Source: Candidatus Bathyarchaeota archaeon
Lineage (GTDB): Archaea; Thermoproteota; Bathyarchaeia; 40CM-2-53-6
DNA length: 64,000 nt
Assembly: GCA_963726255.1 (NCBI GenBank)
Contig: CAVSBL010000002.1
Span: 1,344,001 to 1,408,000, forward strand
Reading direction: 5' to 3'
Positions 28,528 through 51,163 of this stretch are shown in pieces; position 1 is the stretch's first letter; every line of letters starts with the position of its first letter. The notes beneath the pieces were generated by a model. The model saw only the letters and a list, made by a program, of their open reading frames with translations. It searched no databases and had not been told where the DNA came from. Made by a program: the position numbers and the translations under genes.

Positions 28528-28528
28528 G

Positions 28529-33311: not shown

Positions 33312-33357
33312 GCCCACGACTCGTACGATTAATTCTAATGATTAGGAGGTGATTTGA

Positions 33358-33534
33358 TTGGCAAAGAAATTCAAGTGCGCTGATATTGGGATGAAATGTG
33401 ACTATGAGGAAACCGCAACCACAACCGAGCAGCTCATGCCCAAACTTGCTGCTCACGCCAAAGCCGCGCACGGAATGAGTGAAATTCCGACAGAAATCAT
33501 GGCGAAGATCACCGCGGCAATCAAGGACATCTAG
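33358..33534 (+). CDS. DUF1059-family small metal-binding protein (not in ORF track)
   Basis: GGAGGTGA RBS; MAKKFKCADIGMKCDY...AAHAKAAHGM. Confidence 0.85.
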   Translation: MAKKFKCADIGMKCDYEETATTTEQLMPKLAAHAKAAHGMSEIPTEIMAKITAAIKDI

Positions 33535-33565
33535 AAAGAGAAGGTCCGAATACCACACTCTTTTC

Positions 33566-34219: not shown

Positions 34220-34404
34220 TTGAGTTTCTTCCTACGCTTCCTACCATACGTTCAATATTCGTTTCCTTACTATCTGTCAGCCGTTAATCACATAAATCGA
34301 TAAGGCATTTCAGGGAGTATGAGCAGGATACTCTTGGAAAATCCACACTGAAGAATGAATCCAGCCGATCGTCATACCTGATCATTAAGCAGTTTTCATT
34401 AGCT

Positions 34405-34998
34405 TCACAATAACTGAAGGATTATGCTTTCGAGCGTAGCGTAGCTCTGCTGACCCTGAAGTGATGTTACGATCGCGCCATTTCTGTTAATTATGAAGAA
34501 AGTTGGTGTGACGTTAACGCCAAACATACTCATGGTGGAACCGCTTGAATCATACACGTATGTCAAACTCGAGCCGTAGTCCCTTATGAACTTCGCCACG
34601 TCATTCTTCGTGGTGCCCTGCCACGGGCCGGAAACGCTAATGAATGCCACGTTGCCGCCGTATTTTTGGTGCAGCTGTTCTAGGATTGGAACCATCGATT
34701 GGCAATGAGAACACCAAGGTTCCATGAACTCGAGGAATACAACTTTCCCCTGAAGTGAGGAAAATGAGAAGGATTCACCCGTTGCGCCGCTTGGTCCGAT
34801 CACAGGTAACGTGAAATCAAGTGGGTTGGAAGACCGTGACGATGTTGTGGACGAATTTTCAGTCTGTTGTTGGATGGGCAGAGGAGGCTGCGTTAGTGAG
34901 TAGATCACCCAAGCTGCAATCATAATTATCAATGGAATGGCGATCTTTTCCGCCCTGCTTAGTCTCTGTTTCTTTTCTGAGGGCTTCTTTGATGACAT
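34405..34998 (-). CDS. membrane-anchored TlpA/ResA-like thiol-disulfide oxidoreductase
   Basis: N-terminal TM, WCSHC, VTPTF cis-Pro loop. Confidence 0.85.
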   Translation of the reverse strand: MSSKKPSEKKQRLSRAEKIAIPLIIMIAAWVIYSLTQPPLPIQQQTENSSTTSSRSSNPLDFTLPVIGPSGATGESFSFSSLQGKVVFLEFMEPWCSHCQSMVPILEQLHQKYGGNVAFISVSGPWQGTTKNDVAKFIRDYGSSLTYVYDSSGSTMSMFGVNVTPTFFIINRNGAIVTSLQGQQSYATLESIILQLL

Positions 34999-35097
34999 AA
35001 CCCTTACCAGAAAATCTGCAGAGCACTTATCTAAGATTAGGATGACGGCCCATTCACACAGCAGGAAGTCAGTACTTAAGATGGGAAGGATGTCTGA

Positions 35098-35230
35098 GTC
35101 GAAAGAAACAGGTTAACTGTTCGCGGTATGGATTGTTTTGATGGGACACCAGTACTGGACATAATGCCATACAAGGACGACTACAAAGTCGACGATTATG
35201 GTATTGCCGCTTGGTATCATGGACTAATCA
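35098..35230 (+). pseudogene. C-terminal remnant of a TsaA/TrmO-like gene
   Basis: VERNRLTVRGMDCFDGTPVLDIMPY...WY matches the C-terminus of 50645-51163; in-frame TGA immediately upstream. Confidence 0.7.
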
Positions 35231-35291
35231 GTGAAGCAACAAGACGTGCGTGGCACTGTCTTAGTACTCTCCACTATCTCGTCTCGTGCGC

Positions 35292-37703
35292 TCATAGCCC
35301 TAATTTTCTGAACGCGAAGTACTTGGGGAAGTCTACGGCAAGCGTGAATATTGCAGAGAGTCCCAAGACAACGAGAACTTGCATAGTCGTGACGGATGGT
35401 AGGACAACGCCGTAGATTCCCAGCAAGGCAAATCCAATCACCGTAGCTAAGCTAGAGATGGCAAGTTCCCTTCCGGGTCGAGAGGCCCAGAAGTGTCCTC
35501 TCTCCCTCACAATAAGGACTCTAAACTGGCTGGTAAAGACTAGCGTAAGCAGCACAAAGGTCTGAAGGGTTCCCAGCTCCATGTGATAGTAATTCGTGCC
35601 GATGAAGATGACGATGGCACCTTCGACAACCAAGAGTAGGCCGATAATGAGTGAGGCTAACGTGATGTTCTTCACGTTCCAGATGTTTGGGCTGCGCGTG
35701 GTCTTCACGTTATCAGTGGCAAGTGACATTGTTACGAAGTCATTTGCAAACACCAACAAAACCATGCCCAGCACTGAGAGTACGACGTGGTGCAACCAGA
35801 AGAAGCCCAAGACTAGTATGCCGACGAACTGTATTACTTTCGTGACCTTGTTGACAACCCACGTTAGCATGCGCTGGTAGATTTGCCTGCTCGTGCCTAT
35901 TGCGTTGAGGATAACTCTGAGTCCGGGTTCGGTTAGAACTATGCTGGCAGATGCTTTTGCAACATCGGTTGAGTCGCTTACAGCTATGCCTACTTCCGCT
36001 TGTTTGAGCGCAGGTGAATCGTTCACACCGTCTCCTGTCATTCCTACCATGTGGCCTCTCGATTGCAGAAGTTTCACCAGTTTGTACTTGTCTTCTGGAT
36101 AAATCTCAGCCAATCCATCATATTCATCCAGAGCGCTTGCTTGATCCGCTTCTGATAGTTTCTCTAGATTTGACATCGAGTAGATTCGATTGCCAATGTC
36201 TACTTGGCTTGCGATCTCTCTGGCTATTGCCACGTTATCTCCTGTCAGCATTTTCGTCTTTACGCCTAAGCGGTTCAGTTCCCCTATCGTTTCCTTCGAG
36301 TCGGGTCTGGGAGGATCGGCCAGCGGGAGGAGCCCTACAAGCTTGAAGTTATCTAGGTCATTATCCTCTGATTTGGCGACCGCGATTGTTCGATAGCCTT
36401 TCTTGGATAATGATTCCACATTATTGTTGACATTTTTCCTAGTTTCATCGTCTACTTTGCATAGAGACAGAATTACTTGTGGTGCTCCTTTGGCTACTCT
36501 GAATCGTTTTCCGTCGTGTTCGACGATTGCTTCGGATCTCTTTGTCGCTGGATCAAATGGAGTAAACGACTCTTGCGTATATTGGATGGGGGCGGAGAGG
36601 TTCTTTGCGTAGTCGATCACGGCGAGGTCAATTACGTCTCTTATCTCCTCTTTCGAAGCTAGTCTCGCCATTATTGCGACGTCGTTCTTTTCGAACCCTT
36701 GGAAAGGGATAGGGTCGGTGACAGAGAGTTTGTTCTGTGTGATTGTACCGGTCTTGTCTAGGCATAGCACTTCCATTGATGCTGCGTCCTCAATGGAATT
36801 GAGCCTAGTTACTAGAGCGCCTTCTTTGGCAAGTTCCATTGCGCCCACCGCGAGAACGATGGCAAAGACTGCAGGTAGCGCGACTGGGACGGAACCCATG
36901 AGAAAGATTAGAGCGAACCTTACGATGGTTAGGGCGTCTACGACTCGTGTTAAAGCCGCGTCTAATACCACGAACGCCAGGGCCGCAATGCCAATGTACA
37001 TTGCATATTTGACAATGGCCGACATGATCTGCTCTTGGTGCGATTTGGGTTTGGCGATTTTCACTAATTCAGCAGTCTTTCCGAAGTATGTGTGGGCTCC
37101 CGTGTTGAGTACGAGAGCTTTCGCTTCGCCTCGCTTTATGATAGAACTCGAATAGAGAATCCCGGATTGATGTGCGGTCACGGGAAGTGATTCACCGGTC
37201 AACGCTGACTGATCAACGGACACTTCTCCAGCGACTATCTTGCCGTCAGCTGGTATTAGGTCGCCCAAACCAACCTGTATGATGTCGCCTGGAACTATTT
37301 CCCGAGCATCCTTGACGACCCATTCTCCATTCCGCAGAATTTTCGCTTTGATTGCTAGCCGTTTCTTCAGGAGTTCAAGTGCTTTCAGAGAGCTGCGCGT
37401 ATGGTGAAATCCGATGATAGCGTTCAGGGTCAGAAGCCCAAAGACTATTCCCACTTCCAGGTAGTGGCCTATGACGTATGAGAGAACCATCGTTAATTCC
37501 AAAAGCCAAGGCATTGGCCCCCAATACCGCGCCAAGAAATCGACAAACGGGTTCTTCCGCTTCTCCGATAATTCGTTGTAGCCAGATTCGCTAATGCGTC
37601 TCTTTGCCTCATTTTCGCTCAGACCGTTTGTTGACGTGCTCAATGCCGAGTACGCGGCTTCAATTGTTACGTCGGCAAAGTCTGCTGTCGTTCTAGTTGT
37701 CAT
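35292..37703 (-). CDS. P3A-type plasma-membrane proton-efflux P-type ATPase
   Basis: WGPMPW, TGES, PVALP, DKTGT, KGAPQ, TGDGVND, ND...MS...D. Confidence 0.9.
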   Translation of the reverse strand: MTTRTTADFADVTIEAAYSALSTSTNGLSENEAKRRISESGYNELSEKRKNPFVDFLARYWGPMPWLLELTMVLSYVIGHYLEVGIVFGLLTLNAIIGFHHTRSSLKALELLKKRLAIKAKILRNGEWVVKDAREIVPGDIIQVGLGDLIPADGKIVAGEVSVDQSALTGESLPVTAHQSGILYSSSIIKRGEAKALVLNTGAHTYFGKTAELVKIAKPKSHQEQIMSAIVKYAMYIGIAALAFVVLDAALTRVVDALTIVRFALIFLMGSVPVALPAVFAIVLAVGAMELAKEGALVTRLNSIEDAASMEVLCLDKTGTITQNKLSVTDPIPFQGFEKNDVAIMARLASKEEIRDVIDLAVIDYAKNLSAPIQYTQESFTPFDPATKRSEAIVEHDGKRFRVAKGAPQVILSLCKVDDETRKNVNNNVESLSKKGYRTIAVAKSEDNDLDNFKLVGLLPLADPPRPDSKETIGELNRLGVKTKMLTGDNVAIAREIASQVDIGNRIYSMSNLEKLSEADQASALDEYDGLAEIYPEDKYKLVKLLQSRGHMVGMTGDGVNDSPALKQAEVGIAVSDSTDVAKASASIVLTEPGLRVILNAIGTSRQIYQRMLTWVVNKVTKVIQFVGILVLGFFWLHHVVLSVLGMVLLVFANDFVTMSLATDNVKTTRSPNIWNVKNITLASLIIGLLLVVEGAIVIFIGTNYYHMELGTLQTFVLLTLVFTSQFRVLIVRERGHFWASRPGRELAISSLATVIGFALLGIYGVVLPSVTTMQVLVVLGLSAIFTLAVDFPKYFAFRKLGL

Positions 37704-38010
37704 TGAATGAGTACGCCTATCAAGTGTTCACAAAAGCGGCAGTAACCTACCGGCGTTAGTAAGAGTTCCTGACACGATCAGACAAGTCGAAGTCGATTGA
37801 ATGTCAGTTGTGGAGGCAATGAACGAGAAGAGAATCGACCAGTCCGCGTTCTTCTCAGCAGGAGAGGCTAACTAGTAATCATGTACATCAAGCCCGTCGA
37901 GAAGAGGCATGAACGCAAAAATCACTGAGAATGCTCTTCGCCCAGAAGGATTCGTTTCATATCTTCGTATTGGTCCTTCGTGATCTCTCCGAGGGCAGAT
38001 CGCTTCTGCA

Positions 38011-38790
38011 CTATTTCTCGTCATAATTCCAAAAGTGATTTGACCGTTTTTGACCTCCGACCAGCGCAACCACGCCTAGCGTCATCTCCTCCGTAAGCGT
38101 ACGTTGAAAGCCGATAGTGGACAGTGCTTCGGCGATTTCATCCGCGGAGGTTGATTTCAGTATCGAATTTGCAAGGTAGATCAAAGTATACTTCCAGTGC
38201 GCGGAAACTAATCCCCCAAGAGCGGGAATCACATAAAACATATGAAGCCTGAAAACTCGCCACACCAAAACGTTCTCTGGCCTAACAAAATCCACCGAGA
38301 GAAACCATCCCTGTTGAAGCAACACCCTCAGCGACTCACGAAACACAGCCATTTTGTCGCCTAAATTGCGCAACGCTAGTCCGACCGTCACGTACCTGAA
38401 GGTTCCGCTCCGAAAAGGAAGAAATTCTCCGACAGCCCTCACAAAGTCTACATCACAACGGCCCCTTGCCGCATGTTTTTTCCGGTTGGCTATACGCAGC
38501 ATCGAGGGGCTCAGATCCAGGCCTACGACGTAACCACTCCACACGTTCAAGCGTGCCAGGTTGAAAGTCACCAATCCGGTGCCGCACGCTACGTCTAGGA
38601 CCTTAGTTTTATTGGAAAAGACCATCTTGGCAAACATACGTCTCCGCCAAACCCAATCTAGCGAAAGCGTCATCAGATGAACAAGAACATCATACTCGTT
38701 CTCAACATCTGTGAAGATTGCTGTTACAAACTTGGCTTTGTCCACGAATTTGGTAGGAATTTCGATCAGCGTCATGCGTTTCTGGACCAC
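38011..38790 (-). CDS. UbiE/MenG-family methyltransferase
   Basis: F......YD.....M....D..WR, LDVACGTG, LRN, YL..SI. Confidence 0.75.
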   Translation of the reverse strand: MVQKRMTLIEIPTKFVDKAKFVTAIFTDVENEYDVLVHLMTLSLDWVWRRRMFAKMVFSNKTKVLDVACGTGLVTFNLARLNVWSGYVVGLDLSPSMLRIANRKKHAARGRCDVDFVRAVGEFLPFRSGTFRYVTVGLALRNLGDKMAVFRESLRVLLQQGWFLSVDFVRPENVLVWRVFRLHMFYVIPALGGLVSAHWKYTLIYLANSILKSTSADEIAEALSTIGFQRTLTEEMTLGVVALVGGQKRSNHFWNYDEK

Positions 38791-39067
38791 CTACTGAAAG
38801 GAATGGTTAATTTGTGCAGCAAGCCGGCTAAATCGATGTTTGCACATGCACCACTTGGAGGAAGACAGAGTAATAGATGAGATAAGAAGGCTATCCACTA
38901 TCACATGGGGAGCGCTCGCAAACTACTCTTATGGCATACCGAGTATTGTCTCTCGCCTTCTGAAGCCGCATCGTCGCCTGCGGCTTGCTGTTTAGCGCCG
39001 GACGGAAAGAGTTATTTTGCATAAGTATTCACTAACATGCCGTTAGAATACGGACAAGGGCAGGATA

Positions 39068-39580
39068 ATGCTGAAGATTAGGATCAGTTGGCCTAAGCTT
39101 CTCTTGCTTGTGGCCATGTCTGCATTCGGACTATGGGCCTCTTCCATGGTGATAGTCGTCTACTATACGATGAAACAGTCTTTGCCTTTCTGTCCTCTGC
39201 AGCAAGGGCCAGGGATAGTGGTGAATTGCAATGCCGTACTGGACAGCAGGTACAGTATGGTCTTTGGCGTTCCTCTTGAGCTATTCGCTGTCGCGTACTT
39301 TGTCATCAATCTCTTATTGGTCTATTTCATTGCTTTTGGGAGTGATCGCTTGTTTAGAACCTCACTGAATGCCTTGTTTGGATGGAGATTCCTAGGCATT
39401 GTAATTGTACCATACCTCGTCTTCGTCGAGCTGTTTCTGGTTAAGGCCATTTGCGTTTACTGTACTATTATGCACGTTGCGATCATTGCAGATTTTCTCA
39501 TCATCAGCTACCTTCTTTTCTATAAGAAACGCGGCCTGATAGAAGCGGTAGAAGCCACCACGAGCGGGAGGGCAGCGTGA
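39068..39580 (+). CDS. VKOR-family membrane thiol oxidoreductase
   Basis: C...NC.AVL.S.YS..FGVP, CVYC. Confidence 0.88.
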   Translation: MLKIRISWPKLLLLVAMSAFGLWASSMVIVVYYTMKQSLPFCPLQQGPGIVVNCNAVLDSRYSMVFGVPLELFAVAYFVINLLLVYFIAFGSDRLFRTSLNALFGWRFLGIVIVPYLVFVELFLVKAICVYCTIMHVAIIADFLIISYLLFYKKRGLIEAVEATTSGRAA

Positions 39581-40958: not shown

Positions 40959-42431
40959 TCACGCCATTATTGGCTGCACCTCGGAGATTTTCGCGAACTG
41001 CTTTTCGATTTTCTCTCTGTGGAGTGTGTTCATCGTGCAGAACGGGATTATCCTACCATCAGGCACCGCGTAATGAATGCCGCAGCGCTCCACTCTCTCA
41101 AGGTCAAAATTGTATGAGTCCATGAAGTGCATGACGCCTATCATGATTACGCGGTGCATCAATCTGCCAAGCGCTTCGTAACTTCCTTCCCTTACCACTC
41201 CGCTGATCAGAGGTGCGAGCACTCTAAGCTTAAGGTGCCTGAAGCTTTCAATCATCTCTAGTCTCGCTCTTACACTCTTGCCCGCTCTGGCGAGCCTGTA
41301 AACATCATTCATAGAGTGCATGAAAGCGTCGACGTTTGCGTATCGCGTGATTGGGGTCAGTTTTCCGTCTTCGACGAAAACGAATGTTGCCATTCCACAG
41401 TGTTCATGCATTGTGAATTCGGGGTATCTACTTCCCTTCAATGCTCCAACAGCCTTCGCGAATGGAACAACCGAAGGAACAGGATAGAAATCGCTTTGCT
41501 TTATCTGCCCATTCGTCTGCTCTTCAACGAGCCTCATGAAGTCTGGGATCGTAATTCGATAGTCGCGCAATTTTCCTCGATCAATTCTGCCCGTAATAGA
41601 AACTGGCTGAACGTTAACGCATCTGACGATGTCATGGTTTCTCGCTGCAAATTCTATGATGTCGCCTAGCTGAGTATCGTTCACTCCTCTTACTAGAGTA
41701 AGGACAAGGACTACGCTGTCATGACCTGCTGCCCTAAGGTTCTGTAGGGCTTTCAGCTTGGTTGGCCACAGATCTAAACCGCGAGTTGTCTTGTAGGGTT
41801 CCCCTGTGACGCCATCAAATTGCAGGTAGAAACTCGAAACGTCAGCGTCGATGAGGCTCTTCAGATATTCGCGGTCTTTTGATATTCGTACTCCGTTGGT
41901 GTTTACTTCAACATGATGTATACCTTTCTCATGGGCATATCGGATGATATCCGGTAGGTCGTCTCGAAGTGTGGGTTCTCCGCCGCTTAATTGAAGTGCC
42001 TTTACGGATACCGGTTTGTTCGAGGCTAAGTTGTCGATCATCCCGAAGATATCTTCGAGGGTTGGTTCATAGACGTAGCCTGCGGCGGCGGCATTGGCGA
42101 AGCAGATTGGACATTTTAGGTTGCAGCGGTTGGTTACGTCGATGATTGATAGGATCGTTTGCGATTTGTGGTTGGGACATATGCCGCAATCATACGGGCA
42201 CCCGAGTACTGTCTTGGTTCTTGGGTTTGCAAGACCATCCCCCACAATCGAGTATCTCCTTACGCGATCCCATTGTTGGAAGTCGGACCAATACACGTCC
42301 TCGTAATAGCCATGGTTCAGGCATGATTTGCCCATCATGACCTTACCGTCTCTTTCGAATATCCTCGCAGAGATAACCTGATGACATTCTGGGCAAATGC
42401 TCCTAGTTTCCTTCAAGAAATTCTGTCCCAT
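40959..42431 (-). CDS. tes: tetraether lipid synthase (GDGT-MAS) radical SAM enzyme
   Basis: N-terminal CPEC...C..HG, GCPYDCGICPNH, CNLKCPICF, HCG, FMDSYNFD..R..RC, IPFC. Confidence 0.85.
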   Translation of the reverse strand: MGQNFLKETRSICPECHQVISARIFERDGKVMMGKSCLNHGYYEDVYWSDFQQWDRVRRYSIVGDGLANPRTKTVLGCPYDCGICPNHKSQTILSIIDVTNRCNLKCPICFANAAAAGYVYEPTLEDIFGMIDNLASNKPVSVKALQLSGGEPTLRDDLPDIIRYAHEKGIHHVEVNTNGVRISKDREYLKSLIDADVSSFYLQFDGVTGEPYKTTRGLDLWPTKLKALQNLRAAGHDSVVLVLTLVRGVNDTQLGDIIEFAARNHDIVRCVNVQPVSITGRIDRGKLRDYRITIPDFMRLVEEQTNGQIKQSDFYPVPSVVPFAKAVGALKGSRYPEFTMHEHCGMATFVFVEDGKLTPITRYANVDAFMHSMNDVYRLARAGKSVRARLEMIESFRHLKLRVLAPLISGVVREGSYEALGRLMHRVIMIGVMHFMDSYNFDLERVERCGIHYAVPDGRIIPFCTMNTLHREKIEKQFAKISEVQPIMA

Positions 42432-43049: not shown

Positions 43050-43715
43050 TTGTCATGCGAGTTAGGTTCTGGTATGTCACGCAAGATTGACTGTGCGGCT
43101 TGTGGCATTAACCCCTGCTCCTCAGGTAATAGCAATCAATCCTTTGATGGTTGTCCCATGAACACGGCTGAAGAGGTGCTTGAGAATGCTTCCGAGGTCT
43201 ACAAGTCAGAGTTGAGGGAGATGGCTCATGCAGCGGCTGTTGTTGAGGCGAAAGGATACATGAGGTGGACTAGGGTCGAGGACACGATTGAGTTCGCGCG
43301 AGCCATGGGTTATAGGAAGCTTGGCATAGCCTGCTGTGTTGGCTTGAAGAGGGAGGGGGCCATTCTGGAAAGCATCCTACGCAAGAATGGGTTCGAGGTG
43401 TCATCGGCCGTCTGTAAAACGGGCGGCGTCCCCAAGGAGGAACTGGGCATCAAAGATGAGGAAAAGATACGTCCAGGCGGATTTGAAGCTATGTGCAATC
43501 CCATTGCGCAAGCGATGCTCTTGGATTCAGCTGGTTCCCAGCTGAACATACTCGTCGGCTTATGCGTTGGCCACGACGCTTTATTCGCAAAGGCGTCCCA
43601 GGCTCCTGTAACAACGCTAGTAGCCAAGGACAGAGTGCTCGGCCACAACCCCGTCGCAGCCATCTACAATCATCAATCCTACTACAGGAAGAGACTGTAC
43701 GAGGACCACGCTTAG
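43050..43715 (+). CDS. DUF1847 domain protein
   Basis: TRVE, GIACCVGL, CK.G, MCNP, GLCVGHD, KDRV..HNP. Confidence 0.9.
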   Translation: MSCELGSGMSRKIDCAACGINPCSSGNSNQSFDGCPMNTAEEVLENASEVYKSELREMAHAAAVVEAKGYMRWTRVEDTIEFARAMGYRKLGIACCVGLKREGAILESILRKNGFEVSSAVCKTGGVPKEELGIKDEEKIRPGGFEAMCNPIAQAMLLDSAGSQLNILVGLCVGHDALFAKASQAPVTTLVAKDRVLGHNPVAAIYNHQSYYRKRLYEDHA

Positions 43716-43726
43716 GCCTCCATCGC

Positions 43727-44962
43727 TCAGCTGAACGGTTTGCGGAGGGGTATTACCGAAACCTGAACCGTAGATGGAACCTTCTCTGCGATTTGGTTGG
43801 ATTCTTGCATCAATAGTGCCAGCGGCCGGTACAAGGCATGAACGAATTTCGTGAAAGGAGCGGTTATGAGAAGGTTGAAGACTGCTATGAGATGGACCAC
43901 GTAAGTAACATATGCAGCTAAGGGAAAGTCTGCGAGCATGAACAGGTCTAGCAGAAATCCAGTAACACCAACGAGAAGAAGCAAGAGCAAGAAAGTCCAG
44001 TCACTGAAGTGACTGTAGCTTGCATACTCTTCTTTGCCTTCGAACCGTTTGTAGATGAAGTAGACCGATCCGTACGTAAGGGCCAAGCCCGCCACTATTC
44101 CCAAGCCACGAGGTACATAGTAGGACAACTGTAGACTGTACGCGTCGATCGTGTAGTCGAGTGTTGTTGCGGCTAGCAGGCCTAGGAATCCCCAAACGAG
44201 GAGGAGGTGTGCCCAGTACCTGTTGCTGTCTGAACAGTCATGAAAGCGCTTCTGAAGGGCAACCTCGTTTACTATCACTTTGAATAGTGCCTCGAACTTC
44301 GAGGATAAACTCTTAATCCCTTTTGGGGATGACAATTCGTCCCTGCGTTGTGATACGTATCTATGCATGATTCCGAGGTTCGCGAGGGCGCTGAGGCCTA
44401 CAAAAACACCCATGAGTAGTCCTGTCCTGTCGACAGCGTCCATTGGAATGAAGGTGAACATATCGACGCTACTCAAGTCGACGGGTCCGTGGAACATCAT
44501 TATGATAGCGGCCAGAAACAAAGAGAGCGCCGCTAAACTGCCGTAGAAGGCGATCTTGCTGCTGTACATTGCGTCGGATATTCTTCCCCAGCTGTATTTC
44601 TTGATCGCATATCGCCTTGCCGCCATCATGAAAGCTCCTGGGTCGGCGCTGCGGGGGCATGTTTCTGTGCATTCGCCACAGTAGTCGCAGGACCACAGTT
44701 CAGCTGAGGAGAGAAGTTTGTCCTCCAGGCCGACCGCTGCGTACCTAATCATCTTTCTGGGGAATGCTTCGTCCTCCGTTGATAGCGGACAGACTGCTGT
44801 GCAATTGCCGCAATTGAAGCATGCGCTGATATCGAAAGCGCCAACTTTCTTTATCTTGCCCAGTAGGTTTGGGTTGACTGTTAAGGCCAGTTCATCTCCC
44901 TCCTTTTGCCAGCTTGTACTTCCAGTAGCCATCTTCGCTCTTCTCTGATGGTTCCAGGACAT
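43727..44962 (-). CDS. qmoC: QmoC-like protein, second paralog (true start probably near 44890)
   Basis: CFNCGNCTAVCP, WSCDYCGECTETCP, WAHL...WGF, TKFVHALYRP. Confidence 0.8.
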   Translation of the reverse strand: MSWNHQRRAKMATGSTSWQKEGDELALTVNPNLLGKIKKVGAFDISACFNCGNCTAVCPLSTEDEAFPRKMIRYAAVGLEDKLLSSAELWSCDYCGECTETCPRSADPGAFMMAARRYAIKKYSWGRISDAMYSSKIAFYGSLAALSLFLAAIIMMFHGPVDLSSVDMFTFIPMDAVDRTGLLMGVFVGLSALANLGIMHRYVSQRRDELSSPKGIKSLSSKFEALFKVIVNEVALQKRFHDCSDSNRYWAHLLLVWGFLGLLAATTLDYTIDAYSLQLSYYVPRGLGIVAGLALTYGSVYFIYKRFEGKEEYASYSHFSDWTFLLLLLLVGVTGFLLDLFMLADFPLAAYVTYVVHLIAVFNLLITAPFTKFVHALYRPLALLMQESNQIAEKVPSTVQVSVIPLRKPFS

Positions 44963-45179
44963 TGTAGTGTGTCAGTGTGAGCACGTAGTAGGAGGTGGTG
45001 TGCACGTCCATCTCAAGTTCCTTAGCTATCTCTGGGATGGTTTTTTTGTGTGTGGCGACAGCTTTCGTTATCTTCCCCTTGATCTTTGCCTGTTCCCTCA
45101 TCAGGCGGCGTAATTCTTCTGAGGGTGTGAGATTGTATTTTTCTCGGAGTCGCATCAACGTACTTGCCTGCAAGATCAC
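44892..45179 (-). CDS. small winged-helix protein inside the hdrA-qmoC operon
   Basis: KTIPEIAKEL...YYV..L...GYWKY; overlaps the hdrA stop. Confidence 0.7.
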   Translation of the reverse strand: MILQASTLMRLREKYNLTPSEELRRLMREQAKIKGKITKAVATHKKTIPEIAKELEMDVHTTSYYVLTLTHYNVLEPSEKSEDGYWKYKLAKGGR

Positions 45180-47128
45180 TGCCTCCGTGCCATCGCCTTG
45201 ATCATGGCTTCGATCTGCTCGTTACCTAAGCCTTTCAACTCAATGGCGCCAGTCGGGCAGACAGCCACGCATGCGCCGCAGCCTGTGCATCTCGCTGCGT
45301 TTACCCAAGCCTTTTCCCCCTTGCCACTTTCGTCTTTGATTTCAATCGCGTCGTACTTGCACTCTTGTATGCAAAGTCTATTGATAGAGCAGGTTTCGGG
45401 ATTGACGTGAGCCACGAATGGTTCGAGAATAAGTTCCTTTTTCAGGGCTATGTTGGCTGCTTTGCTGGCAGCAGCCTCCGCCGAAGCTACCGTCTCGCTG
45501 ATATCTTTGGGTGCCTGAGCTGTGCCCGCAATGTAAATCCCGGCCATGGCAGTCTCGACAGGCCTCAGCTTCGGATGCATTTCTAGGAGGAATTTGTCCT
45601 TACCTTTTGATATCTTCAACATGCTGTAAAGCTGTTCGTTGCTCTTTCTCGGAACCATTCCTGTTACGAGAACGACCATGTCAACGGGCAACTCCAACTC
45701 CTCCTCGATGGGTGTCAGGAGGTCTTTGACCTTGACTACAAGCTTGCCATTGCTCTGGCGCACGGTGGGCGGAACTTCATCCGCATGTTTGAAGAAAAGC
45801 ACATTCTCTTTTGACGCTTGTTCGAAGAGCAGTTCGTTCAGTCCGTAGGTTCTGATGTCGCGATATATGTGATAGACATGGAGCCCCTTAATTTTATTCA
45901 GCAGAGAGAGTGAAACATTCATTGTAGCATTGCAGCAATACCGAGAACAATACTCGTTAACGTCTTGGTTTTCTCGCGTTGGAGTCTGTCTGCTTCCAAC
46001 ACAGTATATGAAAACGATCTCATGTACTTTATTCGGAATCCCCAACTCCATTAGCCTATGTAACTGCTGGAGCGTTACCACGTTCTTGTAAAGGCCGTAA
46101 CCAAATTCTCCAATCTTCGGTTCGTAGGGATCGAATCCCGTTGTGACAATTATGCTTCCGACCTTGATGCGGATGTTTTTCGGTTGTTCATTCAGGTCCA
46201 CCGCTTCGTTACATATCGCTTGAATCTGGCTCAAGCATTCGGGTGGGCAATGTTCTTTGTCAAGGGAGGGTATGGTGGGGTATGTTCCTTCATAGGGTGG
46301 AAGGATCGCTGCTCCGCGTTTGGTCAGCCCATAGTCGAATTCGTTTGGCACTCCTTGGACATCGGGGACTGATGCGATCCTGGGGCAGGTGGTCTTGAAG
46401 TATCGGGGTTTCGTGTTGATTTCGACTTTGAAGTTTCCGACGTATCCTTCCACAGAACTTATCTCTGAGTTGGTGTAGACGGCGATGTTCTCCTTCGATA
46501 GAACCTCCTGTACCATTTCTTTGGCGATTTCAGGCCCTGGTCGTCCCTGAGGATAGACTTGGGAGAGCTGTGGGACTCTTCCTCCTAGGAAGGGATCCTT
46601 TTCCACAAGATGCACCGCAATTCCGGCATTGGCCAAATCGACGGCGGCTCTTAGGCCTGCGACGCCTCCACCCACAACCATGACAGCCGGGGTTGATTCG
46701 GCGCTGATGCCTTCAAGAGGTTCGGACAGCCTAGAGTATGCCACGGCTGACCTAACCTGCCTTAGTGCTTTTTCGGTCGCCCCTTTCTTGTCTTCTGTGT
46801 GCGCCCACGAGGACTGTTCCCTGATGTTGACATGGTAGTAGGTGTAGGGGTTCAAGCCTGCTCTCTGGCACACATTTCTGAACGTGATCTCATGGAGCCT
46901 CGGAGAACAGGACGCTACTATCATTCTGTCAAGCTTGTTCGCTTTGACATCCTCTATCATTTCATTCTGTGAGGAATCGGAGCAGGCGAACATCACGTCC
47001 TTAGCGACGACGACATTTGCTTCTTTGGCTATTTCTTCGGTTACCTTCTTCACATCAACATAGTCTGAGATGTTTCCTCCGCAGTGGCAGACGTAGACGC
47101 CTATTCTACGCTGTTTGTCTTCGTCCAC
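45176..47128 (-). CDS. hdrA: HdrA-like flavoprotein (QmoB-like) with a degenerate inserted ferredoxin
   Basis: [42 protein letters not shown]. Confidence 0.85.
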   Translation of the reverse strand: MDEDKQRRIGVYVCHCGGNISDYVDVKKVTEEIAKEANVVVAKDVMFACSDSSQNEMIEDVKANKLDRMIVASCSPRLHEITFRNVCQRAGLNPYTYYHVNIREQSSWAHTEDKKGATEKALRQVRSAVAYSRLSEPLEGISAESTPAVMVVGGGVAGLRAAVDLANAGIAVHLVEKDPFLGGRVPQLSQVYPQGRPGPEIAKEMVQEVLSKENIAVYTNSEISSVEGYVGNFKVEINTKPRYFKTTCPRIASVPDVQGVPNEFDYGLTKRGAAILPPYEGTYPTIPSLDKEHCPPECLSQIQAICNEAVDLNEQPKNIRIKVGSIIVTTGFDPYEPKIGEFGYGLYKNVVTLQQLHRLMELGIPNKVHEIVFIYCVGSRQTPTRENQDVNEYCSRYCCNATMNVSLSLLNKIKGLHVYHIYRDIRTYGLNELLFEQASKENVLFFKHADEVPPTVRQSNGKLVVKVKDLLTPIEEELELPVDMVVLVTGMVPRKSNEQLYSMLKISKGKDKFLLEMHPKLRPVETAMAGIYIAGTAQAPKDISETVASAEAAASKAANIALKKELILEPFVAHVNPETCSINRLCIQECKYDAIEIKDESGKGEKAWVNAARCTGCGACVAVCPTGAIELKGLGNEQIEAMIKAMARRQ

Positions 47129-48491
47129 TACTAGCCACCTCGATAGGGATTTTTCGCGTCGTCGTGTTCATGTAGGCTATTGAGTTCATGCAAGCGGCGC
47201 TTCCTTCGACCACTGAATCGGGTATATCTTTGGGTCCAGTTGCTGTTCCCGCAGCGAACACACCGTCAATGTTCGTTTTCATTGGGGCTACGTTCTGGTC
47301 AGGGCTCGTAACCCAGCCGACACTGTCCACCTTGAGTTGTTGGCCCTTGAAGAGATCAGGTGGACACACGTTTGGAAGCAGGCCAACGGACAGCACAGCT
47401 AAGTCATGCTCGGTCTTCGTCAGCTTTCCTCCGTTCTCAATGTCCTCATAGTGTAGTACGAGATTGCCGTTTTCTAACTGCTCTATCTTGGCAACCTTTC
47501 CTTTCACGAACCTGACGCCCATCGCCCTTGCTTGAACATAGAATTCCTCGAACCCTTTCCCATAGGCTCGGATGTCTATGTAGTAGATTGTGATGTCCGC
47601 TATGGGCAAAGCGCCCATCAAGAGCTGGGCCTGCTTTATCGAGTACATGCAACACACCTGAGAACAGTACGGGTTGCCCAGCGATGCGTCTCTTGAACCC
47701 ACACACAGAACATATGCAATGTTGGCGGGTTCCTTGCCGTCGGATGGTCTCACTATGGCGTGTGTTGGCCTTGTCGGAGCGAGGAGCCTTTCCATTTGCA
47801 TTGAGGTGATGACGTTGGGGTATTCGCTGAAATGATAATCGGTTTTGCGTTTTGCGTCGAAGAGCTGGAAACCTGTGGCCACTATGACGGACTTAGCTCT
47901 TAGCGTATGCCATTTCGGCGTCTGAAGGAAGTTGATGCTATTTGCGGGGCAGGCTCTCTCACAAGCGCCACAATACACACAATTCTCCATATCTATGACT
48001 GCAATCTTGGGTACTCCTGTCTCGAACGGAACGAAGATAGCTTTCCTTCCGACAAGCCCCAGGTCGTATTCGCTTGGGACTATCACAGGACAGGCATCTT
48101 CACACTGTCGGCATGCAGTGCATGCGGAGGCTTCCACGTATCGTGGCTTTTCAAAAATGCTAGCCTTGAATGACCCATCTTCCTCTTTTTCGACCGCCTT
48201 TACCTCAGAATAGGTCAGGATCTTGATGTACGGGTGATGGGTCGCCGCAGCCATTTTCGGCGTGGAAATGCAGCTGGCGCAGTCCATTGTGGGGAACGTT
48301 TTGCTGAGCTTGAACATGTTGCCACCTATGCTCGGCTCCTTCTCGACTATGATCACCCGTTTGCCCATATCTCCCAAATCAAGAGCGGCCTGCATTCCAG
48401 CGATTCCACCTCCAATTATGATGGCGTCGTAGCTCTCGTCGGGGAGAGTTTCGGGCTCTCCGAAACTGGGAATCTTCGGGTTTATGCTCAA
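47106..48491 (-). CDS. hdrA: short HdrA-like flavoprotein (QmoA-like), second paralog
   Basis: GGGIAG, KTFPTMDCASC, 2x[4Fe-4S], CSQVCCMYSIK, GPKDIPDS. Confidence 0.87.
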   Translation of the reverse strand: MSINPKIPSFGEPETLPDESYDAIIIGGGIAGMQAALDLGDMGKRVIIVEKEPSIGGNMFKLSKTFPTMDCASCISTPKMAAATHHPYIKILTYSEVKAVEKEEDGSFKASIFEKPRYVEASACTACRQCEDACPVIVPSEYDLGLVGRKAIFVPFETGVPKIAVIDMENCVYCGACERACPANSINFLQTPKWHTLRAKSVIVATGFQLFDAKRKTDYHFSEYPNVITSMQMERLLAPTRPTHAIVRPSDGKEPANIAYVLCVGSRDASLGNPYCSQVCCMYSIKQAQLLMGALPIADITIYYIDIRAYGKGFEEFYVQARAMGVRFVKGKVAKIEQLENGNLVLHYEDIENGGKLTKTEHDLAVLSVGLLPNVCPPDLFKGQQLKVDSVGWVTSPDQNVAPMKTNIDGVFAAGTATGPKDIPDSVVEGSAACMNSIAYMNTTTRKIPIEVASSGRRQTA

Positions 48492-48940
48492 CTCGAAACC
48501 GCCATCCCTGTCTTTACAGGGCCTATCTTTTTCAGCGAAGTGTAGAAGTCTTTGATGCTCTTGGCGAATGATTCACCGCACACTGAGCAGACTCCTGTGA
48601 TCTTGACTCTCTCCGCTTCAATCCCGGTTTCTTTCAGCAGCTTCTGCGCAGTTTCGACTCTCTGCGCTGTCTTCGACACACACTCTTCGCCTAAGTATGG
48701 ACAGTCCGGGCCGTCAGCCGCGATGTAGACGCCTTCAAAACCGTCCTGAAGGGCGTGCACAATAAACTCTGGTCTTATCATCGATGAGCATGGGAGTCTG
48801 ATTATGCTGGTTGATGATGGGTAGTGTATGTGGGAGCTGCCCGCAAAGTCTATGCCGGGGTCTGAGATCGTAGACGTAGAAAAAATGAGGATTAGGGGCG
48901 TGTACTCCTCTTCCGAGGAGACGCGCCTTGGGGCATCCAC
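48488..48940 (-). CDS. MvhD-like protein with an atypical Cys pattern
   Basis: GID.AG....YP....IIRLPCSS.I....I..A...G..GV...DCPY...GIE.ER; CNWC absent, extra CSVC. Confidence 0.75.
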   Translation of the reverse strand: MDAPRRVSSEEEYTPLILIFSTSTISDPGIDFAGSSHIHYPSSTSIIRLPCSSMIRPEFIVHALQDGFEGVYIAADGPDCPYLGEECVSKTAQRVETAQKLLKETGIEAERVKITGVCSVCGESFAKSIKDFYTSLKKIGPVKTGMAVSS

Positions 48941-49180
48941 CTACTTCTTCCTTCTGACATATATCTTCCAGTATCCGTTCTCTTCGACAGTGCCTAGGTA
49001 TTCGTGTCCCATTTTCTTTGCCCAGACTGGGATGTCGGCCTTTGTGCCCGGGTCAGATGAAATTGTTTCGAGAACCGCGCCTACTGGAACTGTGGCAATT
49101 GCTCTTTTTGTTTCGAGTAAGGGACCAGGGCAAGATGTCCCTCTTGCATCCACGACTTTATCCGCGGTGAGCTCTGACAA
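48941..49180 (-). CDS. tusA: TusA-family sulfur carrier
   Basis: DARGTSCPGP, DIPVWA..MGH. Confidence 0.88.
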   Translation of the reverse strand: MSELTADKVVDARGTSCPGPLLETKRAIATVPVGAVLETISSDPGTKADIPVWAKKMGHEYLGTVEENGYWKIYVRRKK

Positions 49181-49194
49181 GGCTTCTCGTTCCC

Positions 49195-49632
49195 CTAGAT
49201 GAAAAGCGTCACTTGGGATTCTGAGGCCTCTGTGATGTAGGTGCCGACGCCCGCTATTTCGTCCACTATTGGGTCGAGGTCATTCTTTGTTATGCCAAGT
49301 AGGTCGCAAGCAGTTGAGCAGGCCAGTATCTTCACTTTTCCCATTTCTTTCGCTTTCTTGAGCATGTCATACCAGGGTGGGGCGTTCGTTACTTTCAGTC
49401 GGTCTTTGATCATGGGAACGAGCTCTTCGAAGTCCTTGCTGAACTTCTGGTTTGTCTTTACCATATCTTTCTTGAAGCCGAGTAGTCCGTAGAATGTGAC
49501 GAATATGGTTACGTCCATGTCTGTGGCAACTGCGCCTGATGTGACTATTGCGAGGGGCATTAGCTTGTCGACTGTTCCGGAGTACATCATTATGGTCATC
49601 TTTCCTGCCATATTTTTCACCGTTCGGTTCAT
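49195..49632 (-). CDS. DsrE/DsrF/DrsH-like (DsrE2-type) sulfurtransferase (likely start 49611)
   Basis: SGTVDK, TIFVTFYGL, ILACS, TLFI C-terminus. Confidence 0.85.
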   Translation of the reverse strand: MNRTVKNMAGKMTIMMYSGTVDKLMPLAIVTSGAVATDMDVTIFVTFYGLLGFKKDMVKTNQKFSKDFEELVPMIKDRLKVTNAPPWYDMLKKAKEMGKVKILACSTACDLLGITKNDLDPIVDEIAGVGTYITEASESQVTLFI

Positions 49633-49676
49633 GTGGAAATCGCTATTTACGACTTCATCGTGATTCCACTCTTTGA

Positions 49677-49712
49677 GAATCAGACGTTCGCAATATACGC
49701 AAATTCTGATGT
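49677..49712. promoter_or_regulatory. ArsR-type operator candidate (tandem) in the divergent dsrE/arsR promoter
   Basis: ATATACG-CAAATT-CTGATGT (49693-49712) has the same layout as 32288-32307; weaker overlapping copy at 49677-49696. Confidence 0.5.
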
Positions 49713-50069
49713 TTGAATACCGAAGAATGGACGTTGTCGCAGGTAAGGGAACGACTCTTCCAAATGCAGGCGGAGGTGTGCAAGATACTCTGTAACCCGC
49801 GGAGGCTGCAGCTTCTGCACGTGCTTCGTGACGGTGAGAAATCTGTCAGCGAATTATCTGCGGTCACGGGGTTGAGGCAAGCGAACGTTTCGCAGCACCT
49901 AGCTTTGATGCGACATCACAAGGTTGTCATCGAGAGGCGCTTGGGGAACTCCGTCTTCTATCACATATCGGACGGACGGATAAACAGCGCCTGCGACCTC
50001 ATCCTAGCAGTATTGTTGGACCAAGCGAGTGAGGATTCGAAACTCATCCGGATCGCACGAAGAGGTTAA
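49713..50069 (+). CDS. ArsR/SmtB-family regulator
   Basis: CKILCNPRRL, ANVSQHL, VFY. Confidence 0.9.
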   Translation: MNTEEWTLSQVRERLFQMQAEVCKILCNPRRLQLLHVLRDGEKSVSELSAVTGLRQANVSQHLALMRHHKVVIERRLGNSVFYHISDGRINSACDLILAVLLDQASEDSKLIRIARRG

Positions 50070-50124
50070 ACACTTCTCATAGGCGTTAGATCCTTGTCAT
50101 CATTGTCAATCGGAGAGAGGGTGA

Positions 50125-50592
50125 GTGTCGGAAGTTTCAGCGAAGTTAAGACGAGTTGACGGCCTCAACTTCAACGTGGAAGTAGCAGGGGGCCGGAGAA
50201 TTCAGCTCAACTCTGCCGAAGATATGGGGCACGCGTTTACTCCCATGGAGCTTTTCCTTGTAGCACTCGCGGGTTGCACGGCCATGGACGTACAGTGGAT
50301 ATTGGAAAAGCAGAGACAGAAAGTCGAGGGACTTGAAATATCAGTTCGAGGAGTCCGTCGCGGAGAAGACCCTGCATACTATGAGAGGATTTACCTCGAA
50401 TATTCGGTGCGAGGTGAGGGCATCAGGAAAGATGCAGTTGAACGGGCAATACGCCTCTCGCAGGAAAAGTATTGCTCAGTCACAGCCATGATTAAGGAGA
50501 CCGTAAAGACACACATAACCTACACAATTGCGGATGGGAAAGGGAATGAACAGAAATTCGTCTATCCAGCTCTCTCCCATAATGTCCGGTGA
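50125..50592 (+). CDS. OsmC/YhfA-family protein
   Basis: PMEL..ALAGC..MDV, LSQEKYCSV. Confidence 0.88.
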   Translation: MSEVSAKLRRVDGLNFNVEVAGGRRIQLNSAEDMGHAFTPMELFLVALAGCTAMDVQWILEKQRQKVEGLEISVRGVRRGEDPAYYERIYLEYSVRGEGIRKDAVERAIRLSQEKYCSVTAMIKETVKTHITYTIADGKGNEQKFVYPALSHNVR

Positions 50593-50644: not shown

Positions 50645-51163
50645 CTAGATGTCTGCACCTACTCTTTCAAGTATCCTACGGTACCATTCAGGCAGTTCAT
50701 ATTCTTCTGCCCTGTAGTTGCTGCGATATGGCTTTAGGTCAAGAACAGGCGTTCCATCAAAAAGATCCAAGCCGCGGACAAGAAGCCGTGTCTTTTCTAT
50801 TCGCAGAAGCCTCACGAGGCTTAATCCAATTGGATTTGGCCTGGTAGGAGAGTCAATGGCGAAAACCCCTACCAAAGGCAACTCCTCAGGTTTAAAGCCG
50901 GCCTTCAGTAGTCTTCGCGGTTTAACTTTCAATGGACCAATCTGGTCAGGCCGCAACCTATGCAGGTAACTCAACACGAATATGTGAGAAAATCCCTCAA
51001 GGCCATCCAGCGCATCATTGAATTGTGGGAAGACTTCAACAGTTGCTTCCAATTCGCTATGCATTTCTCTTACTTCGTCGTCAGTCGCATCGGTCCGCAC
51101 AATTCCGACGGGTCGAAGAATAATCCGATTTTCATGTTGCATACCGAACTCTCCTGAAGCCAC
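50645..51163 (-). CDS. TsaA/TrmO-like SAM-binding protein
   Basis: GLEGFSH, GVFA..SP.RPNPIGLS, DGTPVLDLKPY. Confidence 0.88.
   Translation of the reverse strand: MASGEFGMQHENRIILRPVGIVRTDATDDEVREMHSELEATVEVFPQFNDALDGLEGFSHIFVLSYLHRLRPDQIGPLKVKPRRLLKAGFKPEELPLVGVFAIDSPTRPNPIGLSLVRLLRIEKTRLLVRGLDLFDGTPVLDLKPYRSNYRAEEYELPEWYRRILERVGADI

Follow-up and report, generated by a model that had tools for sequence, protein, structure and literature searches.

TusA and DsrE carriers feed sulfur to Dsr and to the HdrB-containing sHdr system, and Qmo is the quinone link of adenosine 5'-phosphosulfate (APS) reductase. The membrane subunit of type I Qmo, QmoC, is thought to interact with menaquinone, and in canonical QmoB an MvhD-like part forms the C-terminal domain. 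Flavoprotein persulfide and sulfur reductases with a built-in carrier domain are also known, among them a persulfide reductase with a rhodanese domain that depends on reduced nicotinamide adenine dinucleotide (NADH), and NAD(P)H sulfur oxidoreductase. Here we describe an operon from a Candidatus Bathyarchaeota archaeon in which genes for a DsrE-like carrier and TusA stand together with genes for an MvhD-like protein (MvhD'), two HdrA-type flavoproteins, a small winged-helix protein and a QmoC-like membrane subunit. The operon lies in a stretch of 64,000 nucleotides (hereafter, the window; GenBank assembly GCA_963726255.1, contig CAVSBL010000002.1, positions 1,344,001 to 1,408,000).

An earlier reading of the window, made from the sequence only, held that the pairing of sHdr-type carriers with a Qmo-type membrane arm matches neither system; the Qmo-type part does have a precedent and belongs to type II Qmo as set out by Neukirchen et al. 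2023 (PMC10504309). In their passages on Qmo types, these authors split Qmo into type I and type II, place the QmoAB of type II nearer to HdrA, give 'Ca. Vulcanisaeta moutnovskia' and Ammonifex degensii as type II organisms and say that experiments on type II Qmo are needed. For V. moutnovskia, supplementary table 1 of that paper lists QmoC, a gap of one accession, QmoB and then the next gene. The TusA and DsrE sets in the corresponding passages of Tanabe et al. 2024 (PMC11094781) are described for the sHdr system only. Archaeal three-gene dsrEFH type II clusters, a different DsrE set, may lie near qmoAB, according to the account of these clusters in a 2026 paper (PMC13293266).

On the basis of gene content, conserved residues and gene order, we hypothesize that the operon encodes a membrane-anchored, type II Qmo-like complex of the HdrA type, the partner of which would be sulfane sulfur carried by TusA and DsrE rather than APS reductase, and which most likely reduces this sulfur to sulfide. 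We hold this reading with middling confidence.

A conserved seven-gene operon

Seven minus-strand open reading frames (ORFs) at 43727-49632, each overlapping its neighbour or separated from it by at most 14 nucleotides, encode in transcription order the dsrE-like gene, tusA, mvhD', a short hdrA, a long hdrA, the small winged-helix gene and the qmoC-like gene. Two genes, for ArsR and OsmC proteins, diverge from the operon. Domain identities were assigned by Pfam and NCBIfam profile searches, which agree with the ORF calls on the genes, order, coordinates and divergent pair given in the sequence-only reading (lengths in amino acids, aa):

49195-49632, minus strand: DsrE-like sulfur carrier, 145 aa (Pfam PF13686 DrsE_2, 84.6 bits)
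48941-49180, minus strand: TusA, 79 aa (Pfam PF01206, 87.1 bits)
48488-48940, minus strand: MvhD', of the MvhD/FlpD family (Pfam PF02662, 101.1 bits)
47106-48491, minus strand: short HdrA-type flavoprotein at the QmoA position, 461 aa (NCBIfam HdrA2, 494 bits)
45176-47128, minus strand: long HdrA-type flavoprotein at the QmoB position, 650 aa (HdrA2, 576 bits)
44892-45179, minus strand: small winged-helix protein, 95 aa (no Pfam or NCBIfam family)
43727-44962, minus strand: QmoC-like membrane subunit, 411 aa (NF038018, 226.9 bits; cut-off 300)
49713-50069, plus strand: ArsR/SmtB-family regulator (NF033788, 74.4 bits)
50125-50592, plus strand: OsmC-family protein (Pfam OsmC, 68.1 bits)

The gene arrangement is far beyond chance, and the same order recurs in all 13 informative loci of a genome survey. 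This survey, anchored on QmoC (24-sequence alignment), returned 22 loci, which were annotated by tblastn with the window proteins. Sixteen are of the TusA type, and the other six are hydrogenase-linked or fragmentary. Three TusA-type loci (L036, L037 and L045) end before the upstream sequence; the remaining 13 all encode TusA and MvhD', and 12 have a DsrE match (L048 does not). By record title, the archaeal TusA-type loci come from Bathyarchaeota (95-97% identical), Acidilobaceae, Desulfurococcales, Nitrososphaerota, Conexivisphaerales, Thermoplasmatota, Thermoproteota and two Vulcanisaeta strains, and the bacterial ones from Chloroflexota and a metagenome-assembled genome (MAG) with the planctomycete label Blastopirellula. 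A rhodanese gene precedes the cluster in L043, and a TauE exporter gene precedes it in L046.

An independent metagenome scan anchored on MvhD' gave at least 599 pattern matches and at least 516 confirmed relatives, the best 80 of which were used for counting. In 73 of the 76 informative loci, tusA is directly upstream of MvhD' (within 300 base pairs in 72, overlapping in L109), the exceptions being L081, L086 and L087. An HdrA gene follows MvhD' in all 63 loci with enough downstream sequence. The complete metagenome loci (n = 36) contain:

TusA: 35
DsrE-like gene: 32
Both HdrA: 36
Winged-helix gene: 27
Full QmoC-like gene: 21
At least the HdrC-like head: 34

The DsrE gene changes place, as it may precede tusA, stand between mvhD' and hdrA or follow qmoC, and tusA is fixed to mvhD'. 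The first HdrA carries an insertion of approximately 1.4 kb in 25 of the 36 complete loci; in L082 it is a GltD-like NAD(P)H module (Fer4_20 and Pyr_redox_2, 903 aa). At the place of QmoC, L129 has a 400-aa CCG-domain (HdrD-like) protein. On this gene-order evidence, TusA-MvhD'-HdrA-HdrA is the constant core, and the partner for electrons is exchangeable: a CCG protein, NAD(P)H or, by way of QmoC, quinone. The linkage of tusA and dsrE seen in the window is therefore kept in other genomes, across archaeal and bacterial phyla and in both surveys.

Close to the organism itself the cluster is scarce. Among 40 relatives, 22 of them of the same genus, no close MvhD' orthologue was found (the best matches, at 38% identity, are canonical MvhD paralogues), and the MvhD' profile found the cluster in 5 of 400 sampled genomes of the phylum.

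Some loci have features of their own. In the two Vulcanisaeta loci (L044 and L050, from the JCM 14467 and 16159 drafts), mvhD' and the long hdrA appear as split matches to tblastn or hidden Markov models, some with stop codons, and aprA in G051 and G056 is split likewise; these are either frameshift sequencing errors or real decay. In a Desulfurococcales MAG, the genes directly after the cluster (L033:11263-16008) form a Psr/Ttr-like set, which encodes a molybdopterin oxidoreductase, a four-cluster ferredoxin subunit, a cytochrome b561-like membrane protein and a NarJ-like chaperone; this set and the cluster might act on the same sulfur substrate.

Sulfur carriers and a rewired MvhD

Both carriers retain their cysteines. 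The C-P-G-P motif of TusA (C17, P18, G19 and P20) is invariant in an alignment of all 26 cluster-linked TusA sequences, and Cys105 of the DsrE-like protein is invariant in all 59 cluster-linked DsrE-like sequences. The operon encodes the sole TusA of the genome above the Pfam cut-off (49.2 bits on the E. coli TusA equivalog model, below the cut-off of 78), and the dsrE-like gene is the sole DrsE_2 match in the genome. The nearest solved chain to the DsrE-like protein is 2qs7_A (111 bits). Assignment as a DsrE2 equivalog (NF047629) was rejected, at 48.2 bits against a cut-off of 210, and the protein is a member of DrsE_2 only.

Judged by its residues, MvhD' is the most unusual part of the operon. 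It aligns with the solved MvhD chain 5odc_D over 133 residues (70 bits), and its cysteine columns were judged against those of five canonical MvhD proteins, taken from the window and from related loci. Three of the five canonical columns are gone: both cysteines of FACNWC (replaced by FSTSTI) and the first of GCHLGDC (GC replaced by AD). The cysteines of PCSS and DCPY are retained. A new cysteine, Cys87, stands seven residues later than that of DCPY, and a C-S-V-C pair (C118-x-x-C121) has been gained near the C terminus. C118 and C121 are invariant in all 26 cluster-linked sequences, and C51, C80 and C87 are conserved in at least 90%. Archaeal MvhD' sequences thus have the fold and sequence of the PF02662 family and lack the complete canonical cysteine set, which we take to hold the [2Fe-2S] cluster of the solved MvhD.

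A bolder proposal, which we consider doubtful, is that MvhD' does more than connect electrons passively and forms a catalytic or docking module of a new kind. Its relocated iron-sulfur (Fe-S) site and the invariant CxxC pair would accept sulfane sulfur from TusA and, with no HdrB involved, reduce or form it in single-electron steps. The entire family, with at least 516 metagenome relatives from both domains, would in that case be an HdrA-based enzyme class that had gone unrecognized. Its members would link persulfide on proteins to quinone, NAD(P)H or ferredoxin, possibly with bifurcation at the flavin, and a sulfur-carrier oxidoreductase would be the new reading of the 'type II Qmo' to which archaeal sulfate reduction has been credited. 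A complex prediction for MvhD' and TusA (26-row alignments for each) scored 0.00 in both runs, which had no controls, and counts neither way on binding.

The HdrA pair and the QmoC-like membrane subunit

HdrA2 and HdrA are the top NCBIfam models for both flavoproteins (494 and 576 bits), which score 398-471 bits against solved HdrA. The short protein covers positions 141-563 of the HdrA2 model and aligns with residues ~136-560 of the solved chains 9sfi_A and 5odc_A. It has a thioredoxin-reductase-like flavin adenine dinucleotide (FAD) domain, the DCxxC motif (as DCASC) and an inserted 2x[4Fe-4S] ferredoxin domain with both CxxCxxC...CP motifs, but neither the N-terminal domain nor the ferredoxin domain at the C terminus. 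The second cysteine of its DCxxC motif stands opposite an X in 9sfi_A. The long protein aligns end to end with 5odc_A (471 bits, residues 3-650) and retains, besides the FAD domain, both terminal domains (the cysteine domain at the N terminus and the 2x[4Fe-4S] ferredoxin domain at the C terminus); its DCxxC motif is gone ('qvypqgrpgp' opposite 'ktfptndcsic'), as are most cysteines of the inserted ferredoxin domain. By these alignments, the two proteins are complementary in the domains that they retain.

The QmoC-like protein matches Fer4_8 and Nitrate_red_gam in Pfam, with an HdrC-like 2x[4Fe-4S] head, which matches HdrC in solved structures, and a NarI-type membrane domain. Eight cysteines (C48/51/54/58 and C92/95/98/102) and four histidines (H158, H252, H357 and H375) are invariant in 24 orthologues and fit the predicted two-cluster head and di-haem b domain. 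Its homologues begin approximately 11-13 residues downstream of the listed ATG.

A hydrogenase-linked paralogue in the same window

The sequence-only reading noted the lack of hdrB, aprAB and hydrogenase genes. This holds for the operon, but a hydrogenase-linked paralogue lies in the window and four CCG (HdrB-type) genes lie elsewhere in the genome. The paralogue cluster (24040-31855, plus strand), 15 kb from the operon, encodes a QmoC-like protein (400 aa), a short HdrA (445 aa), a long HdrA (653 aa), a canonical MvhD, MvhG, MvhA and a HycI protease. Identities between the operon and the paralogue are:

QmoC: 44%
Short HdrA: 44%
Long HdrA: 41%
MvhD (MvhD' against the canonical MvhD): 31%

At the MvhD end, the paralogue has the hydrogenase (MvhG/MvhA) and the operon has TusA/DsrE, so that the two clusters look like a natural module swap. 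The paralogue itself is possibly a hydrogenase-linked type II Qmo-like complex that acts as an H2:quinone (and ferredoxin) oxidoreductase, to judge by its genes. Similar clusters are present in the Bathyarchaeota loci L038-L040.

A tree of long HdrA proteins (31 sequences hand-picked from the loci, quick maximum-likelihood search, midpoint root) places the 23 TusA-linked sequences of archaeal type in one clade, with a Shimodaira-Hasegawa-like approximate likelihood ratio test (SH-aLRT) value of 100. The operon protein stands in this clade beside that of a Bathyarchaeota MAG, with copies from Thermoprotei and Thermoplasmatota next to it. The hydrogenase-linked long HdrA of the window falls on the other side of the tree, with the canonical HdrA of the genome. 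Because the two long HdrA proteins are in separate groups, the two clusters are old paralogues and not a recent duplication. The nesting among Thermoprotei and Thermoplasmatota copies, together with the patchy distribution, points to lateral spread of a self-contained module.

The paralogue, which needs no TusA or DsrE, also bears on the possibility that the complex has a substrate other than sulfur. It would then be, for example, a ferredoxin:quinone or NAD(P)H:quinone oxidoreductase, and the carriers would serve maturation or regulation, for example by supplying cofactor sulfur or sensing sulfane sulfur. The operon contains no known sulfur-reducing catalytic subunit, the electron-partner modules (QmoC, CCG protein or NAD(P)H insert) vary freely, and a cysteine desulfurase/IscU pair is encoded 10 kb away, all in keeping with such a role, as is the case of E. 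coli, in which TusA donates sulfur for the synthesis of cofactors (PMC8477390, in a passage citing Dahl et al. 2013). However, maturation factors are rarely strictly adjacent to one subunit, as TusA is to MvhD' in 73 of 76 loci, across two domains, and two carriers with invariant active-site cysteines suggest a relay rather than a one-off donor. We therefore think it rather unlikely that the substrate is not sulfur.

Partner genes in this genome and in other carriers

The assembly (2.42 Mb, 5 contigs, 98.5% complete, 9.3% contamination) has a best aprA match of 45.7 bits against a cut-off of 641.75 and no match to dsrA or DsrC; a YeeE/YedE transporter and a molybdopterin oxidoreductase were also not found in it. 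The CCG domain occurs in four genes, all more than 630 kb from the operon and each with partners of its own:

First CCG gene: in an hdrCBA set
Second CCG gene: in a fumarate-reductase-like/hdrCB/mvhDGA set
Third CCG gene: a NarI-CCG membrane protein beside etfAB
Fourth CCG gene: a LUD-domain lactate-utilization protein

Because each has its own complete context, no orphan hdrBC is left for the operon. In line with the sequence-only reading, the searches of this genome thus revealed no cognate aprAB or hdrBC partner elsewhere. Nor were apr, dsr, sat or CCG genes found in the flanks of 11 related loci (116 ORFs). Among 16 other genomes that carry the cluster, 6 have aprA, 9 have dsrA-like genes and 7 have neither; most are MAGs, so these absences are provisional.

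These data bear on a plain type II QmoABC that connects the quinone pool with APS reductase, as has been proposed for V. moutnovskia, and has TusA and DsrE as accessories. The two Vulcanisaeta strains carry the full TusA-linked cluster, the qmoC-like gene of which is their only full-length one, and the V. moutnovskia order in the table of PMC10504309 matches qmoC, small gene, long hdrA and short hdrA. The 6 carriers with aprA are also as this arrangement would predict. The other 10 carriers lack aprA, apr genes are absent from the flanks of the 11 loci, and in a thermoplasmatal genome (Thermoplasmata G049) aprA stands 3.5 kb from a canonical qmoC (345.6 bits), in addition to which there is a TusA-linked qmoC-like gene (195 bits) on another contig. 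Because G049 holds both, the two systems are separate and able to coexist. For the Bathyarchaeota genome, in which aprA, dsrA and DsrC were sought without success, the link to APS reductase is already refuted, unless aprBA lies in the missing 1.5% of the assembly; we regard it as highly improbable overall.

The genome has three GcvH-family genes, none near the operon. One of the three, outside the window in the region G000:C2:12641-14173 (L137:5642-7174), encodes a 221-aa protein in which a weak TusA-like domain (25.7 bits, below the cut-off) is joined to the GcvH-like domain (91.8 bits). It has 'EGVRY' at the usual lipoyl-lysine motif, as judged by eye, and its gene is convergent with a tandem-rhodanese gene. 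This pair resembles the LbpA/TusA/rhodanese sets of sulfur oxidizers; Hdr genes are not nearby.

Proposed function and direction

We hypothesize a relay built on the template of the paralogue, in which electrons would pass from a donor module to MvhD, the HdrA pair, the HdrC-like head, the haem b of QmoC and quinone. In the operon, two sulfur carriers would replace the donor or acceptor module, and MvhD would be replaced by a version with relocated cysteines; it is this double replacement that suggests a carrier-bound sulfane sulfur:quinone oxidoreductase. A persulfide would be held on Cys105 of the DsrE-like protein and then handed to Cys17 of TusA, which would present it to an MvhD'-HdrA heterodimer. 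MvhD' would occupy the slot between hydrogenase and HdrA that is filled in the paralogue by canonical MvhD. The electron path would join the sulfur site to the quinone pool through the FAD and Fe-S clusters of both HdrA proteins, the HdrC-like head of QmoC and its di-haem b domain. Candidates for the catalytic site are the CxxC pair of MvhD', which is invariant, and the site in the short HdrA that binds FAD. Reduction of persulfide or polysulfide could provide a small respiratory sink or relief from sulfane-sulfur stress, and electrons from quinol and ferredoxin might be combined.

The sequence-only reading had proposed that protein-bound sulfane sulfur is oxidized or reduced against the quinone pool. 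Its basis in carrier linkage has held, as the linkage is conserved and no aprA, dsrA or dsrC was found in this genome, whereas the complex, its substrate, the use of quinone and the direction are what we infer from it. A quinone pool in this organism is plausible, given the genes for a UbiE/MenG-type methyltransferase and VKOR in the window and the NarI-CCG/etfAB set. Reduction to sulfide is favoured because this anaerobe has no enzyme to oxidize the sulfur further and because Apr, Dsr, DsrC, YeeE and a molybdopterin sulfur reductase were not found in its genome. It is also favoured because several carriers belong to groups that are known for sulfur-reducing archaea (Acidilobaceae, Desulfurococcales and Vulcanisaeta include sulfur-reducing anaerobes), and because bacterial versions of the cluster take in NAD(P)H.

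Several points weigh against this proposal. The operon has no CCG or other known persulfide- or disulfide-reducing subunit, which makes the catalytic site conjectural, and on standard potentials the reduction of persulfide by menaquinol alone is uphill. Searches of the genome found no supply of sulfane sulfur (a YeeE importer, or a polysulfide, thiosulfate or sulfur reductase) and no MqnA, and no RNA is on record among the 20 sequencing runs listed as holding this DNA; two of these runs contain at least half of the sampled sequence words and may include the source sample. The cluster is rare and patchy (5 of 400 genomes, none close in 40 relatives), which marks it as accessory rather than core. 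The dsrA-like genes in 9 and aprA in 6 of the 16 other carriers count on the same side, as do the two Vulcanisaeta genomes, in which the TusA-linked gene is the only full-length QmoC-like one; in its remarks on Vulcanisaeta, PMC10504309 cites Chernyh et al. 2020 for the acquisition of Qmo having enabled sulfate reduction there.

The same complex could run in reverse, oxidizing sulfide (to persulfide) or carrier-bound sulfane sulfur to the benefit of the quinone pool, in which case the HdrA flavin might bifurcate electrons to quinone and ferredoxin, much as the paralogue may do with electrons from H2. This direction draws on the same conservation evidence. The equivalent module of the paralogue, MvhAG, donates electrons; the failure to find YeeE is as expected if the substrate is H2S, for which an importer is not needed; and the short HdrA retains every feature of a bifurcating HdrA in the alignment. 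TusA and DsrE carriers are, moreover, best known from sulfur oxidizers, as the passages on them in PMC11094781 describe. Oxidation would leave sulfane sulfur that no enzyme found here processes further (there is no CCG protein in the operon and no Dsr or Soe-type molybdoenzyme was found), and many of the named carriers belong to groups regarded as sulfur-reducing anaerobes. We consider the reverse direction a serious rival, if a somewhat unlikely one.

Should reduction of carrier-bound sulfane sulfur be correct, the operon would represent an overlooked route of sulfane-sulfur turnover in anoxic sediments, would give a function to 'type II Qmo' and would add to the reactions known for flavoenzymes of the HdrA type, which possibly bifurcate. 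As a test case the genome is useful in that the operon is its only recognizable sulfur-redox module and the hydrogenase-linked paralogue is a built-in comparator.

Regulators and neighbouring genes

The small winged-helix gene stands between the long hdrA and qmoC in 11 of the 13 informative genome loci (the exceptions, L043 and L047, are both bacterial), as well as in the 27 complete metagenome loci counted above. An AlphaFold2 model of the 95-aa protein (24-row alignment, mean predicted local distance difference test score of 91.5) has the winged-helix order helix-helix-helix-strand-strand. Its top Foldseek matches, to the SmtB, CzrA and Z-alpha winged helices, are weak (E ~2e-3), and the nearest ESM Atlas clusters are small ArsR-like proteins. 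The protein may be a regulator or a subunit; the gene is in frame with QmoC in 0 of 32 loci, so that there is no Rosetta-stone support for a role as a subunit.

The divergent ArsR is likely to be the operon regulator. Of the divergent pair to which the sequence-only reading drew attention, ArsR is a recurrent neighbour of the cluster (23 of 80 metagenome loci, plus genome locus L043), but OsmC is not conserved, with no match beside the cluster in the 80 metagenome loci or the 22 genome loci. ArsR has three cysteines (Cys23, Cys27 and Cys94), and the columns of Cys23 and Cys94 are cysteine in most cluster-adjacent ArsR regulators. A persulfide sensor of the SqrR/BigR kind was considered and rejected: the protein scores 46.7 bits on the BigR model against 155, and the cysteine positions do not match, Cys23 and Cys27 lying approximately 11-15 residues ahead of the first cysteine column of SqrR and HlyU (alignments to 6o8k and 13ct for SqrR and 4k2e for HlyU). 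No inverted repeat of at least 10 nucleotides, such as an operator palindrome, was found in the 80-nucleotide spacer between dsrE and arsR.

Upstream of the operon, 32649-39580 encodes a double thioredoxin-fold protein, a C39-like peptidase (DUF3335), an AhpC/TSA-redoxin and a P-type ATPase, together with the UbiE/MenG-type methyltransferase and VKOR, which suggests a redox-homeostasis neighbourhood. A DUF1847 gene (43050-43715, plus strand) is convergent with qmoC and is near the cluster in 2 of the 80 metagenome loci (L059 and L129). Beyond OsmC is a gene with a TrmO_N domain (50645-51163, minus strand), and a TrmO_N gene follows dsrE in L129. The proximity of both may be due to chance. Both the window (40959-42431, minus strand) and the closely similar Bathyarchaeota locus L031 (L031:15397-16875; 95-97% identical) encode a radical SAM protein whose N-terminal zinc ribbon is of the HMPTM type. 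DUF134, cation-efflux and NifX-like (Nitro_FeMo-Co) genes surround the cluster in both, in rearranged order, and ArsR and OsmC are absent from L031.

Comparison with known systems

The operon is closest to type II Qmo, with which it shares two HdrA-like flavoproteins that score better on HdrA models than on any Qmo model and a QmoC-like subunit. All seven genes recur with their order unchanged, at 27-65% identity, in the Vulcanisaeta loci L044 and L050, and the accession gap between QmoC and QmoB of V. moutnovskia fits the small winged-helix gene, as far as accession order goes. Type II Qmo as presented in PMC10504309 has an Apr partner and serves sulfate reduction, whereas searches of this genome found no Apr, Dsr or DsrC; the type II Qmo text and table of that paper make no mention of tusA, dsrE or mvhD beside Qmo. 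Type I QmoABC, of sulfate reducers and green sulfur bacteria, also has two HdrA-related flavoproteins and a membrane subunit with HdrC-like and NarI-like parts. Unlike it, the operon is not adjacent to aprBA and has its MvhD-like part as a separate gene, and its QmoC falls under the NF038018 cut-off (226.9 against 300), which the true member in G049 exceeds (345.6).

As in the sHdr-LbpA system with TusA and DsrE3, in the passages of PMC11094781 devoted to it, carriers of sulfane sulfur (TusA and proteins of the DsrE family) are linked genetically to a flavoprotein of the HdrA type. The operon differs in lacking CCG (HdrB)/HdrC subunits and a lipoate-binding protein, in having the membrane subunit QmoC instead, and in having two HdrA proteins and an MvhD-like protein. 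Its long HdrA and MvhD' align with the solved HdrA and MvhD of the MvhAGD-HdrABC complex of methanogens (5odc), but it has neither hydrogenase nor HdrB, and the cysteine set of MvhD' is altered. With the persulfide reductases that have a carrier domain, the operon would share the reduction of sulfane sulfur on a carrier cysteine by a flavoprotein, and the bacterial cluster variants carry an NAD(P)H module; beyond the FAD fold there is no kinship of sequence, the carriers of the operon are separate proteins and its electron source would be a membrane subunit.

In the full-text literature, from which subscription journals are mostly missing, we found no description of a tusA-dsrE-mvhD-hdrA-hdrA-qmoC cluster. 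The parts and the Qmo-like core were already known, and it is their wiring to TusA, DsrE and a rewired MvhD, without Apr or Dsr, that is to our knowledge undescribed. Next to the delivery of sulfur to Dsr or sHdr and the quinone link of APS reductase, the operon would thus be a third wiring, in which the carriers are joined to HdrA, MvhD and QmoC without a known catalytic sulfur subunit, and which is shared by Thermoproteota of hot springs, Bathyarchaeia of sediments and many bacteria, whether or not these organisms have Dsr or Apr.

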